Virus record (IMG/VR): IMGVR_UViG_3300042350_003801
DNA from: a virus
Taxonomy: Duplodnaviria > Caudoviricetes
Reading direction: 5' to 3' (one strand)
DNA length: 64,000 bases
Shown here: in pieces, positions 1,622 through 34,757 of the stretch
Layout: the number at the start of each line of letters is the position of its first letter
Position numbering within the stretch: the first letter of the stretch is position 1
Position numbers and translations under genes: made by a program
The notes under the pieces: generated by a model
Told to the model about the DNA's origin: nothing
Seen by the model: the letters and a program-made list of their open reading frames with translations, nothing else
Databases searched by the model: none

Positions 1622-1684
1622 AACAGGTTTTATGGGTTTGTGGAGTGGATGGTGGACGGTTGGTTAACTGGCACGATGTAAATG

Positions 1685-3040
1685 GGTCCATTAAAAAACT
1701 TCACTAAATAAAGATGCCTGGTTGGGTCGTGCTTTTCAGGTAGGGGATGAATGAATCATCCCCTTAAAACAATAACTTTCATAAATAATAACACGACCCA
1801 ATAATCAGAGCAGATGCACTTAAAAGCATACAAGTTCAGGATTTATCCAACTAAAGACCAAGAAGTTTTGTTAGCGAAAACTTTTGGTTGTTGTAGGTTT
1901 GTTTGGAACAAACTTGTTGAGAACTTCAATAACAACTCCAAGGAAATTATTAACGAAAAGACATTAAAAGACACTCCCGAATTTGAGTTTCTTAAAGAAG
2001 TTTCTGCTTCTACACTTCAACAAAAGAGAAACGACTTTATTGAATTCAAGAAGCAGTTTTTCAATAAGAAAAGAAAGGCCAAATTAGGACGGCCTTCTTT
2101 TAAGAAGAAATCGAATCTTCAGTCTTTTAGACTTCCCAATCAGAAATTCGTTCTAGACCAAGAAAGCGGTCTGGTTAGACTCGAAAAAATTGGTTGGGTT
2201 AAAGTTGTCGTTGACCGCGAAATCCCCGAAGATGCCGATTTTAGGAACATTACCGTTTCTAAAACTCCAACGGGAAAGTATTTTGCCTCTATCTTAGTCA
2301 AACAAGAACTCAATCCAATACCCTCAACCGGCAAGGTAGTAGGTATTGATTTGGGCATTAAAGACTTGTTCATTCTTTCAAATGGTCAAGTCATTAACAA
2401 TCCCAAGTGGTTTCACAAGAACCAAGCGAAACTCAAAAAAGCCCAGAAACATTTAAGTCGCAAGAAAAAGGGAAGTAATCGTTACAACCGGCAACGAATT
2501 AAAGTTGCTAGAATACACGAATACATTACCAACAGTAGAACTTACTTTCTCCATAACGTGTCTACCGCCTTGGTTAGAACTTTTGATTTAATAGTTCTTG
2601 AAGACCTTAATGTTTCTGGAATGCTAAAGAACCGTAAATTAGCGAAGTCCATTAGCGATGCGGCGTGGTCTACTTTTGTGTCTATGCTGGAATACAAGTG
2701 CAATTGGTACGGTAAAGTCTTGGTTAAAATTAATCGATTCTTTCCTTCCAGTAAGACTTGTAGTTCTTGTGAACATAAGGAAGACAAGATGCCTTTAAAA
2801 ATTCGGGAATGGACTTGTCCTTCTTGCGGTTGTCAACACGATAGAGACTTAAATGCCTCTATCAACATTCTTAAAGAAGGTTGGAGAAATCTAACCGACC
2901 AAGAACTTTCATCGGCGGAGTACGCCGATTACTGGCGTGGAGCGGAATTAAGACTAAATGGTGATTCACATCATTTAGCATCTGCTGTGAAGCGTCTAGA
3001 AAACCAATAGAGTTTTACTTTTATTGGTTTTTTTTACTAT
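1685..3040 (+). mobile_element. tnpB-only (IS1341-like) element, copy 1
   Basis: Similarity to the copy at 33401-34757 begins at ggtcca and ends at ttactat; no tnpA. Ends are inferred from the two-copy alignment only. Confidence 0.65.
1814..3010 (+). CDS. tnpB: TnpB RNA-guided endonuclease (IS200/IS605 family)
   Basis: KAYKFRIYP N-terminus, RuvC GIDLG / EDL / DRDLNA, zinc finger CSSC..CPSC. Confidence 0.95.
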   Translation: MHLKAYKFRIYPTKDQEVLLAKTFGCCRFVWNKLVENFNNNSKEIINEKTLKDTPEFEFLKEVSASTLQQKRNDFIEFKKQFFNKKRKAKLGRPSFKKKSNLQSFRLPNQKFVLDQESGLVRLEKIGWVKVVVDREIPEDADFRNITVSKTPTGKYFASILVKQELNPIPSTGKVVGIDLGIKDLFILSNGQVINNPKWFHKNQAKLKKAQKHLSRKKKGSNRYNRQRIKVARIHEYITNSRTYFLHNVSTALVRTFDLIVLEDLNVSGMLKNRKLAKSISDAAWSTFVSMLEYKCNWYGKVLVKINRFFPSSKTCSSCEHKEDKMPLKIREWTCPSCGCQHDRDLNASINILKEGWRNLTDQELSSAEYADYWRGAELRLNGDSHHLASAVKRLENQ

Positions 3041-3095
3041 CATTATCACCGTCAAAATAATTATTAAAATTTTGATGTGATTTAGAGTAGTTCAT
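3021..3095 (-). pseudogene. N-terminal fragment of a family gene cut by the tnpB element
   Basis: [20 protein letters not shown] runs into the element right end; ATGA overlap with 3092..3538. Confidence 0.7.
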
Positions 3096-3538
3096 AAGTC
3101 GTTAAAAAGAGGAACAAACAATAAATCCTTACCATCGTCCAAAAGCGTGTGCATACCAATTAGTTCATAAGTGGCATACCCGGCGGCAGACCCGGCGGCA
3201 TCCCCGGCGGCATCCCTGGCGGCAGCCCAGGCGGCAGACCCGGCGGCATCCCCGGCGGCATCCCTGGCGGCAGCCCAGGCGGCAATCCTGGCGGCAGACC
3301 CGGCGGCATCCCCGGCGGCATCCCTGGCGGCAGCCCAGGCGGCATTCCTGGCGGCAGCGTCTAGGGCATGATAACGGCGGGCAACTTCATTCCATTGGTT
3401 CTCGGTAAGACCGTCCATAAACCACCAGAAGTTAATGACGGTTTCGTAGTTTGGTCCTAGAAAATTCTGTGGATTTGTTAGGGCTTCAGGATTTTGAAGG
3501 CGGTTGGAGAAGTTTTTATGTGCTTTTGAGTAGTTCAT
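3092..3538 (-). CDS. Family protein with 15-unit AA-X-X repeat (copy A)
   Basis: Constant N- and C-terminal frames around [20 protein letters not shown] units. Confidence 0.85.
3176..3355 (-). repeat. 15 x 12-bp tandem array GCCGCC-NGG-NNT
   Basis: Units read directly; higher-order WA-RD-GD-GS block occurs three times. Confidence 0.95.
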
Positions 3539-22802: not shown

Positions 22803-22838
22803 TATAAATAGATATGTAATAAACAAATATTACATATG
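22803..22838 (+). promoter_or_regulatory. T4-type late promoter plus hairpin over the tnpB start codon
   Basis: TATAAATA at 22803-22810; 10-bp perfect stem 22812-22821/22828-22837 including A and T of the ATG. Confidence 0.75.
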
Positions 22839-24014
22839 AAACATAGAGCATACAAATATAGGTTCTATCCTACTCAAGACCAAGAAGTTATTCTTCGCAA
22901 GTCTATGGGGTGTGCTCGTTTTGTCTATAATTATTTTCTTGATTATAAAAGCAAAAAGTGGAAAGAAGAACAAAAGAGTGTTTCAGTATATGAAACATCT
23001 CGCATTCTCACACAACTCAAGAAAGAAACTGAATATGAATGGTTAAAGGAGCCGGTAGCGGCTGTGCTTCAAGGTTCTCTTATCAATCTAAATGATGCAT
23101 ATCAGAGGTTCTTTAAAGGTAAGGCAAACTATCCAAAGTTTAAGAAAAAGTCTAGAAGAAATAGTCTCTATTTTTCACCAAATGCCTTTTCGTATAAGAA
23201 CGGAAATATTAGTCTCTACAAATGTGGAGTAATTAATATTCGTTGGAGTAGAACTTTACCGGATGGAGTTTACCCAAAGAGTTGTGTAGTTTCACTTGAA
23301 CCTTCCGGTCGTTGGTGTATTTCTATTTTAATAGAAGACCCAACAATAGAAGAACTTGAACCGGTAGAAAAATCTATCGGTCTTGATATGGGCATTAATC
23401 ATTTTGTGGTTTCAAGTGATGGAAATAAAATTAAGTCTCCTGCTCTTAAAAAAGAGTACGCCAAATTAAAAAAACTACAAAGAAAATTAAGTAAAAAACA
23501 AAAAGGTTCTAATAACAGGCATAAAGCAAGATTAAAAGTTGCTAAACAATATCAAAAAATTACTGATATTAGAACCGATTTTCAACAAAAACTTTCAACT
23601 AAACTGGTGCGCGAGAACCAAACCATCTGTTTAGAAACTTTGAATATTGTTGGAATGGTAAAGAACCGCAAACTTTCAAGAGCAATTAGTGAAGCATCTT
23701 GGGGAACTTTTATTGATATGCTTGAGTATAAATGCGGTTGGTATGGTCGTAATCTTGTGAGGATTGACCGTTGGTATCCTTCAAGCAAAACTTGCAGTTC
23801 TTGCGGTTCAGTTCAGTCTAAAATGCCATTAAATATTCGTGAATGGACTTGCCCGAATTGTGGGGTTCATCACGATAGAGATATTAATGCAGCAAAGAAT
23901 ATTCTTGCGGTAGGAAATACCGTCTATGCCTGTGGAGGTAATGTAAGACCAAAGGAAGTGAGTTCCAGAGGCAATTCCGTTGAAGCAGGAAACTTAAACT
24001 GTGAGGTTAAGTAA
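22836..24014 (+). CDS. tnpB: TnpB, second lineage
   Basis: RAYKYRFYP, GLDMG / ETL / DRDINA, CSSC..CPNC. Confidence 0.95.
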   Translation: MKHRAYKYRFYPTQDQEVILRKSMGCARFVYNYFLDYKSKKWKEEQKSVSVYETSRILTQLKKETEYEWLKEPVAAVLQGSLINLNDAYQRFFKGKANYPKFKKKSRRNSLYFSPNAFSYKNGNISLYKCGVINIRWSRTLPDGVYPKSCVVSLEPSGRWCISILIEDPTIEELEPVEKSIGLDMGINHFVVSSDGNKIKSPALKKEYAKLKKLQRKLSKKQKGSNNRHKARLKVAKQYQKITDIRTDFQQKLSTKLVRENQTICLETLNIVGMVKNRKLSRAISEASWGTFIDMLEYKCGWYGRNLVRIDRWYPSSKTCSSCGSVQSKMPLNIREWTCPNCGVHHDRDINAAKNILAVGNTVYACGGNVRPKEVSSRGNSVEAGNLNCEVK

Positions 24015-33400: not shown

Positions 33401-34757
33401 GGTCCAATAAAAACTTCACTAAATAAAGATGCCTGGTTGGTTGGCGCTTTTCAGGTGGGGGAGAATTTCTTCTCCCCTTATAAAATAAAACTTTACTAAA
33501 TAATATTGCCAACCAATAAACAGAGCAGATGCATTTAAAAGCATACAAGTTCAGGATTTATCCAGATAAAGAACAAGAAGTTATATTGGCGAAGACTTTC
33601 GGTTGCTGTAGGTTTGTTTGGAACAAACTCGTTGAAAACTTCAACAGTAACTCCAAGGAATTCATAAACGAAAAAACTTTGAAAGACACTCCCGAATTTG
33701 AATTTCTTAAAGAAGTTTCTGCTGCTGCTATTCAACAAAAAAGAAATGACTTTATTGATTTCAAGAAGCAGTTTTTCAATAAGAAAAGAAAGGCCAAATT
33801 AGGACGACCTTCTTTTAAGAAAAAATCAAATCGTCAGTCTTTTAGACTTCCCAATCAGAAGTTCGTTCTAGACCAAGAAAACTCTTTAGTTAGACTTGAA
33901 AAGATTGGTTGGGTTAAAGTTGTCGTTGACCGTGAAATTCCCGAAGATGCTGACTTTAGGAACATCACTGTTTCTAAAACACCAACCGGTAAATACTTTG
34001 TTTCAATTTTAGTTAAGCAAGAACTCAATCCAATACCCTCAACCGGCAAGGTAGTAGGTATTGATTTGGGCATTAAAGACTTGTTCATTCTTTCAAACGG
34101 ACAAGCAATTAACAATCCTAAATGGTTTCGCAAGAACCAAGCGAAACTCAAAAAAGCCCAGAAGCATTTAAGTAGGAAAAAGAAGGGAAGTAATCGTTAC
34201 ATTAAGCAACGAATTAAAGTTGCTAAAGTACACGAATACATTACAAACAGTAGAACTTACTTTCTTCATAACGTGTCTACTGCTTTAGTGAACACTTTTG
34301 ACTTGATAGTTCTTGAAGATTTAAACGTTTCTGGAATGCTGAAGAACCGCAAGTTGTCTAAATCAATCTCGGATGCTTCTTGGTCTACTTTTGTGTCTAT
34401 GCTGGAATACAAGTGTAACTGGTATGGAAAATTGTTGGTTAAAATTAACCGTTTCTTTCCGTCAAGTAAGACTTGTAGTTCTTGTGGTTACAAGAAAGAC
34501 AAAATGCCTCTTTCGGTTAGAGAATGGACTTGTCCATCTTGTGGTTGTCAACACGATAGAGACTTGAATGCCTCTATTAATATTTTAAAGGAAGGTTGGA
34601 GAAATCTAACCGACCGAGAACTTTCATCGGCGGAGTACGTCGATTACGGACGTGGAGCGGAATTAAGACTGAATGGTAATTCACATCATTTAGCATCTGC
34701 TATGAAGCGTCTAGAGAACCAATAGAGTTTTTTGACTTTATTAGTTTTTATTACTAT
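33401..34757 (+). mobile_element. tnpB-only element, paralog of 1685-3040
   Basis: Shared leader, ORF and 3' tail. Confidence 0.65.
33529..34725 (+). CDS. tnpB: TnpB, close paralog of 1814..3010
   Basis: Both 398 aa with the same catalytic D/E/D and zinc finger. Confidence 0.95.
   Translation: MHLKAYKFRIYPDKEQEVILAKTFGCCRFVWNKLVENFNSNSKEFINEKTLKDTPEFEFLKEVSAAAIQQKRNDFIDFKKQFFNKKRKAKLGRPSFKKKSNRQSFRLPNQKFVLDQENSLVRLEKIGWVKVVVDREIPEDADFRNITVSKTPTGKYFVSILVKQELNPIPSTGKVVGIDLGIKDLFILSNGQAINNPKWFRKNQAKLKKAQKHLSRKKKGSNRYIKQRIKVAKVHEYITNSRTYFLHNVSTALVNTFDLIVLEDLNVSGMLKNRKLSKSISDASWSTFVSMLEYKCNWYGKLLVKINRFFPSSKTCSSCGYKKDKMPLSVREWTCPSCGCQHDRDLNASINILKEGWRNLTDRELSSAEYVDYGRGAELRLNGNSHHLASAMKRLENQ

Follow-up and report, generated by a model that had tools for sequence, protein, structure and literature searches.

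TnpB elements are the ancestors of Cas12, and those carried by phages probably spread through RNA-guided homing; to our knowledge, hardly anything has been learned about how TnpB expression is controlled in phages. Among insertion sequences, fold-back inhibition serves IS10 and IS50 as self-protection, and IS10 is also under antisense control by its RNA-OUT/RNA-IN pair. The left end of IS200 contains a terminator and a stem-loop that sequesters the SD sequence, and both shield the element from outside transcription (PMC4513863). In T4, a hairpin sequestering the ribosome-binding site (RBS) is combined with an internal late promoter; this gate has been described for I-TevI, I-TevII, I-TevIII, segB and Aeh1 mobE, and also for T4 genes e, soc and 49 (PMC2988022). 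Late transcription of the T4 type involves gp55, gp33 and gp45. T4-type phages also present PeSL cassettes, composite modules of a terminator and an early promoter that mediate module shuffling (PMC2839356, PMC4122927). The small RNAs of ISPpu9 (PMC8450116) were used here as a comparison case for one of the rival readings given below.

We studied a leader of ~125 nt located 5' of each of two tnpB genes in a 64-kb stretch of viral DNA, hereafter the window, and conserved in both window copies and in relatives. The analysis supports a covarying structure at the RNA level. Our preferred reading, to which we give a probability of about 0.65, is that of a cis-acting RNA gate in the style of T4 that would silence tnpB transcripts started upstream. 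The leader resembles the T4 gate in that a helix would hide the translation start on RNA arriving from upstream, in that a TATAAATA-like motif is positioned so that its transcript would lack the 5' arm, and in that selfish nuclease genes of T4-like phages are the ones guarded. It differs in its layout: the arms, separated by ~60-80 nt, have between them not only the promoter motif but also a second hairpin or terminator, the masking arm has a conserved local partner of its own, and a second copy of the promoter motif stands in front of the leader. Moreover, the leader is a conserved portable cassette with variable pairs of 'address' sequences, and the controlled gene encodes the RNA-guided TnpB instead of a protein-only endonuclease.

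As in IS200, the structure is found within the left end of an insertion sequence, joins a hairpin or terminator to a structure hiding the ribosome site, and would limit expression to the element's own promoter. In contrast to IS200, the leader would control tnpB and not the transposase, carries phage late-type motifs and is common to genes outside insertion sequences; the IS200 stem-loop is also present on the transcript of its own promoter, whereas the leader's inner transcript would escape. With the PeSLs it shares the character of a short conserved module of promoter and stem-loop that is found repeatedly where variable genes of T4-like genomes begin or end, but the promoters of PeSLs are early ones, and masking of the ribosome site is not among their described properties. 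If the small-RNA reading discussed below were true, the leader would resemble IS10 and ISPpu9 as well, with the loop of a stem-loop pairing with the 5' end of a nuclease or transposase mRNA; in this case the putative leader RNA is encoded upstream on the same strand and has ~17 nt of complementarity.

The class of mechanism is already known from the gating of T4 homing endonucleases. New are the RNA leader family itself, which is outside Rfam, shows unusually clear covariation and of which we found no published description; its bipartite layout, in which a terminator is nested, the promoter motif occurs twice and the local stem offers an alternative fold; and the use of the putative gate on TnpB, in common with HNH genes. 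A clade of tnpA-less phage tnpB genes (69-92% identity) would thereby apply the logic of T4 homing endonucleases to an RNA-guided nuclease. The same module on an HNH (endonuclease VII) gene suggests that, in T4-like phages, selfish nucleases unrelated to one another hold regulatory cassettes in common or exchange them.

Leader layout, promoter-like motifs and the long helix

The window contains two tnpB-only elements in the positive strand, at ~1687-3040 and 33404-34755, which are 87% identical to each other. Genes of T4 type are also present in the window: a gp5-like hub, tail tube cap, wedge, gp32-like SSB, head closure and DNA end protector. The features of the two leaders and their genes, all in the positive strand, are as follows.

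1704-1710 (+): copy 1, first motif, CTAAATA (TAAATA at 1705-1710); start predicted at G1716 by the T4 spacing rule
1715-1731 (+): copy 1, 5' strand of the long helix; conserved masking part UGCCUGG and variable 10-nt address (1722-1731)
1736-1741 (+): copy 1, 3' arm of the local stem, UCAGGU; pairs with 1716-1721 and is the alternative partner of the masking part
1742-1764 (+): copy 1, nested hairpin of 9 bp with a 5-nt loop; no U tract
1781-1787 (+): copy 1, second motif, ATAAATA (TAAATA at 1782-1787), in the loop of the long helix; start predicted at A1793
1792-1812 (+): copy 1, 3' strand of the long helix; address complement (1792-1801) and translation start region to -2
1814-3010 (+): copy 1, tnpB (398 aa), the gene under putative control; Pfam OrfB_IS605, Cas12f1-like_TNB and HTH_OrfB_IS605
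33419-33425 (+): copy 2, first motif, CTAAATA (TAAATA at 33420-33425)
33430-33446 (+): copy 2, 5' strand of the long helix; address at 33437-33445
33451-33456 (+): copy 2, 3' arm of the local stem; pairs with 33431-33436
33458-33477 (+): copy 2, nested hairpin, GGGGAGAA/TTCTCCCC
33496-33502 (+): copy 2, second motif, CTAAATA (TAAATA at 33497-33502); start predicted at G33508
33507-33527 (+): copy 2, 3' strand of the long helix; reaches -2 before the ATG
33529-34725 (+): copy 2, tnpB (398 aa); Pfam OrfB_IS605, Cas12f1-like_TNB and HTH_OrfB_IS605

A first-pass annotation of this DNA had proposed a pairing between the two ends of each leader, and direct reading of the sequence bears it out: TTGGGTCGTG (1722-1731) is exactly complementary to CACGACCCAA (1792-1801) in copy 1, and so is TTGGTTGGC (33437-33445) to GCCAACCAA (33508-33516) in copy 2. 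The three compensatory double changes between the copies are also as it described them, namely G-C to U-A, C-G to G-C and U-A to C-G (positions 9, 11 and 13). Folding and RNAduplex calculations showed that this 10-bp pairing is the core of a helix of 16-17 bp, longer than first described, which extends through the conserved CCUGG into the region from -22 to -2 before the tnpB ATG in the eight leaders measured by RNAduplex; in copy 1 the extension pairs CUGGU with AUCAG and UGC with GCA. A helix reaching these positions would hide the ribosome landing site, and it is this continuation, missed in the first-pass annotation, that makes the structure a candidate silencer. As in the T4-type hairpins gated by a late promoter, the helix contains the start region of the gene in these eight leaders, and MFE folding recovers it too.

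The pairing and the fold are far beyond chance. Long RNAs, from the first motif to just beyond the ATG, were folded for the two window copies and three relatives, and all five MFE folds gave the extended helix, with z from -4.4 to -6.3; those of copies 1 and 2 reached -38.5 and -37.6 kcal/mol (z -5.3 and -4.4), and 0 of 200 shuffles were as good. The short RNA of copy 1, beginning at the inner start, gave only -3.2 kcal/mol (z -1.3), and its start region was essentially unstructured. In all 18 distinct leaders collected (see below) the mean unpaired probability of the region from -18 to +3 was lower in the long than in the short RNA, with medians of 0.28 and 0.58, respectively. Duplexes of each 5' strand with its own partner had -22 to -25 kcal/mol, and those with the partners of other leaders -4 to -18. 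We also scanned the window for TAAATA followed within ~60 nt by an exact complement, of at least 9 nt, of sequence in the 130 nt before the motif: the two leaders were the only sites, and the one extra match (54770) was an A/T-only 10-mer at the far edge of the span. The address sequences had no other target beyond chance within the 64-kb window.

Late-promoter-like motifs had been reported before the structure and just before the 3' strand, and we found them at both places in both copies. Three of the four are CTAAATA and not NATAAATA, the sole ATAAATA being that at 1781-1787; all 18 leaders have TAAATA at both places, without variation, while the flanks vary. The two motif regions of each window copy form a direct repeat, 77 nt apart and 78% and 83% identical, and ATAAATA also precedes several other genes of the window, e.g., 22 nt upstream of the tube-cap gene. 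According to the T4 spacing rule, TATAAATA occupies -13 to -6. With this rule, RNA from the outer motif is predicted to start where the local stem begins, on the first base of the masking strand, and RNA from the inner motif on base 1 or 2 of the 3' strand, leaving a leader of 19-23 nt in 18 of 18 cases. As judged from motif and position, the 5' arm and the RBS are separated by a late-promoter-like motif in all 18, as in the T4 gate. The promoters and their starts are putative, deduced from the T4 spacing rule and the conservation of the motifs. NATAAATA is the late-promoter consensus of T4-like cyanophages or cyanomyoviruses (PMC2984593).

Between the two strands of the long helix lie a local stem and a nested hairpin. 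The local stem, TGCCTG/CAGGT, has six pairs, two of them G-U, in the fold of copy 1 (1714-1770), and 97% of its cells were paired among the 18 leaders, with little variation. It competes with the extended long helix for one and the same CCUGG. The pseudoknot geometry proposed earlier was discarded: the local stem shares its 5' arm with the helix extension, so that the two are alternative folds and not partners, and the linker of 0-1 nt would be too short to span a 10-bp stem. In two relatives (L320 and L321) CCUGG is changed to CCUAA, and both partners follow, UCAGG becoming UUAGG and AUCAG becoming AUUAG; this triple covariation suggests that both pairings of CCUGG are under selection. The middle hairpin was confirmed with its two further double changes, GGGGATGA/TCATCCCC (1743-1750/1756-1763) in copy 1 corresponding to GGGGAGAA/TTCTCCCC (33458-33465/33470-33477) in copy 2. 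In the window copies it is followed by TTAAAAC, with no U tract, and terminator prediction does not call it; merely 2-4 T follow it in all the tnpB leaders.

Covariation and distribution of the leader

The 18 distinct leaders comprise 15 located before tnpA-less tnpB genes, in lake-phage contigs, and three before other genes; the 15 were sampled from more than 100 TnpB clusters in lake metagenomes. A covariance model was built from four leaders and used to align all 18, ten of which had been obtained through TnpB protein identity with no leader motif imposed. The model fitted this alignment to the structure, and many of the sequences are related. Of the pair cells of the long helix and nested hairpin, 96.2% were standard pairs; column shuffles gave 76.2%, and 0 of 500 attained the observed value. 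Both sides changed at 20 of 24 pairs. The central helix of 11 pairs was 98.5% paired and 10 of its pairs covaried, as did all seven pairs of the nested hairpin (helix 4), several columns showing three pair types. Sliding the partner by one to three columns lowered the standard pairs to 38-52%. G-U pairs were confined to the sense strand, an indication that the structure is one of RNA and not of DNA.

A pattern search of viral and metagenome contigs first revealed the cassette before genes other than tnpB. In one contig (L143) it precedes an endonuclease VII (HNH) gene, Pfam PF02945, and in a group of contigs (L130, L132 and L147) a gene of 119 aa; no tnpB is found beside them. These cassettes have distinct address pairs, TTTGTGTGAGA/TCTCACACAAA and AACTACTGCA/TGCAGTAGTT, perfect TATAAATA inner motifs, and a ribosome-binding AAGG or AGG paired with ACCU. 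Their nested hairpin, a 9-bp GC stem followed by T5-T6, forms a strong terminator.

Further contigs were chosen through TnpB protein identity and not through the leader motif, thereby avoiding ascertainment bias; they yielded ten further distinct leader versions with seven new addresses, and at least 12 address versions have been seen overall. All the tnpA-less relatives of 69-92% TnpB identity had the leader, with the sole exception of L323 (75%), whose upstream region is different. Two other relatives, L003 (82%) and L326 (64% TnpB identity), have a serine-recombinase tnpA (Pfam Resolvase, IS607 type) directly upstream; they are without the leader and present only a late-type motif before tnpA.

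Wider searches were mostly unproductive. A 14-mer scan for further cassettes gave mostly chance matches, the pattern ACCTGG..CTTTTCAGGT revealed no new cassette class in viral contigs, and bacterial genome contigs gave chance matches only, the cassette not being seen among them. No cassette was found at relatives of the endonuclease VII gene (L150) or of the 119-aa gene (L160-L229). In five viral records the covariance model recovered the known copies plus one chance match within a glycosyltransferase gene. Cultured phages (INPHARED) gave no match to the leader, just coding similarity of 65-78% in tnpB. In one metatranscriptome run the leader was not covered by any read; the single contig of this run lay on the tnpB body of a relative. 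The search of Rfam returned no family, the sole match being U8 snoRNA (E 0.31, opposite strand, below threshold), a chance match.

Two observations were made on the contigs outside the tnpB group. The 119-aa gene (L132 4339-4698, with copies in L130, L134, L136 and L139) looks like a chimera: its residues 64-119 are matched by the C-terminal part of a gene widespread among viral contigs, and the N-terminal 60 residues occur with the cassette only, so this gene may be a nuclease-gene remnant fused to a resident gene. A decayed cassette is present behind a 2OG-Fe(II) oxygenase gene in four contigs (L128, L129, L138 and L149; e.g., L129 4143-4260). It keeps the first motif, CCTGG, CTTTTCAGGT and the AACTTTCATAgATAA stretch; its address has no partner, with one base varying between contigs, and its fold is no better than shuffles (z +0.9).

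A putative gate on tnpB translation and rival readings

The reading we favor, a cis-acting gate, would work as follows. RNA begun at or before the first TAAATA would carry the masking strand, i.e., UGCCUGG and the 10-nt variable address, which would first pair locally with the nearby UCAGGU. Once the far strand is made, the address complement and the start region (-22 to -2) would become the partners of the masking strand in the 16-17 bp helix, and ribosomes could not load. RNA from the inner motif would begin with base 1 or 2 of the 3' strand; it would lack the masking strand, and its leader of 19-23 nt would be open and translatable. The nested hairpin would shorten the loop and halt part of the incoming transcription, acting as a terminator in the non-tnpB versions. 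The net effect would be that the nuclease is made solely from the inner promoter of the cassette, presumably late in infection, and that its gene is shielded from outside transcription. The first-pass annotation had offered, as one possibility, a pseudoknot switch silencing the long transcript; silencing is the part that stands as the best-supported reading, and the pseudoknot was lost to the competition of the stems for CCUGG. Some points count against the cis gate. The ribosome-binding sequence of tnpB itself is weak (AGAGCAG). The first motif, if a late promoter, would fire together with the second, and the retention of a promoter for silent RNA is left unexplained; the conserved local stem is likewise unneeded in a purely cis model. 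The strong conservation of outer motif and local stem, not accounted for by the cis gate, keeps alive the idea of a small RNA, mainly for the endonuclease-gene cassettes with terminators. This idea, which we regard as rather unlikely, is that the first motif yields a trans-acting RNA of 55-65 nt, with the address in the loop of its 5' stem-loop followed by the nested hairpin, that would act in trans, pairing along the entire 5' leader of the mRNA from the inner promoter, and would repress or tune nuclease translation copy-specifically; it could operate in addition to the cis gate. It would give a role to the TAAATA kept at the first place in every leader, with a T4-rule start exactly at the base of the local stem, and to the maintenance of that stem, including the triple covariation of L320 and L321. 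The strong terminators of the non-tnpB cassettes and the advantage of 5-20 kcal/mol of own-partner duplexes over those with other leaders' partners also agree with it. On the other hand, with the few T after the hairpin in tnpB leaders little RNA is expected to end there, pairing in cis accounts for the same covariation, and the addresses are without other targets in the window. The ~55-nt small RNA proposed earlier is therefore weak for the window copies, given the TTAAAAC and the missing terminator call, although motif and complementarity are present and the endonuclease-gene versions do have T5-T6. As a tentative extension, and one we likewise doubt, the cassette might be a portable riboregulator pair in which the small RNA from the outer promoter uses its loop address and masking part to pair with the complete 20-nt leader of the inner mRNA. 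If that were true, each selfish nuclease gene (TnpB or HNH) in the phage would have its private repressor, the address would evolve by compensatory change, and the module would move among unrelated nuclease genes through recombination at the repeated promoter motif.

The two pairings of CCUGG, both conserved and covarying, also invite the proposal of a regulated two-state switch, in which TnpB, a phage protein or temperature would select between local stem and long helix, and RNA started upstream would be silent conditionally and not always. We consider it improbable: the long helix (~-24 kcal/mol) is far more stable than the six-pair local stem, which may be a simple co-transcriptional intermediate, and there is neither a conserved unpaired ligand pocket nor a match in Rfam. 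Hairpins are typical of the ends of IS200/IS605 elements, and the structure does sit within the left end of the element, so a DNA-level transposon end recognised by an IS200/IS605 TnpA or an IS607 recombinase was weighed too. The check for a single-stranded left-end hairpin recognised by TnpA was negative, and we judge a DNA end of either type very improbable. The relatives that keep a transposase (L003 and L326) encode a serine recombinase, not a Y1 HUH TnpA, and are without the leader; the same cassette occurs before endonuclease VII and another non-tnpB gene with no adjoining tnpB; the sense-strand G-U pairs would be A-C mismatches on the opposite strand; and alignment of the right ends shows no matching hairpin. 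IS607 elements are mobilised in the form of double-stranded DNA, and their ends are not palindromic (PMC10690162).

The leader is also distinct from the omegaRNA of TnpB, as had been stated: it lies 5' of the ATG, and the conserved scaffold of the 3' end is at ~2900-3040. Two other candidates were rejected. For a group I intron or IStron, Rfam yielded nothing at E<=1 or at the gathering threshold, and ~125 nt is too short for one. A leader peptide was considered for the ATG at 1714, which opens a frame of nine codons in copy 1, but neither frame nor ATG is conserved (L004, L132).

The tnpB elements and their surroundings

A third tnpB in the window (22836-24014) is 43% identical to copies 1 and 2. 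It is preceded by the window's sole perfect TATAAATA in the positive strand (22803-22810), and 3' of this motif a perfect 10-bp hairpin pairs 22812-22821 with 22828-22837, including the ATG. To judge from this arrangement, the region upstream of the third tnpB is a candidate for a simpler gate of T4 style.

The left ends of the elements are preceded by TGGG in copy 1 (1683-1686), AAGG in copy 2 (33401-33403) and TTGG in a relative (L007). A GG core and a TGGG target have been reported for IS607-family elements (PMC10690162), and these flanks would fit them. Two lake DNA runs gave contigs joining position 1662 to 3053, with 1390 bases missing that correspond to the tnpB element and some flank. 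They probably represent an allele without the tnpB element; the shorter side of the junction has just 22 nt and the junction is inexact. In L326, a second, truncated tnpB-like ORF of 229 aa (2808-3497) follows just 3' of the complete IS607-type tnpA-tnpB element. In one lake contig (L309 2457-3597) the tnpB element is immediately 5' of a large-terminase gene; this gene carries a LAGLIDADG domain, probably corresponding to an intein or a homing endonuclease.
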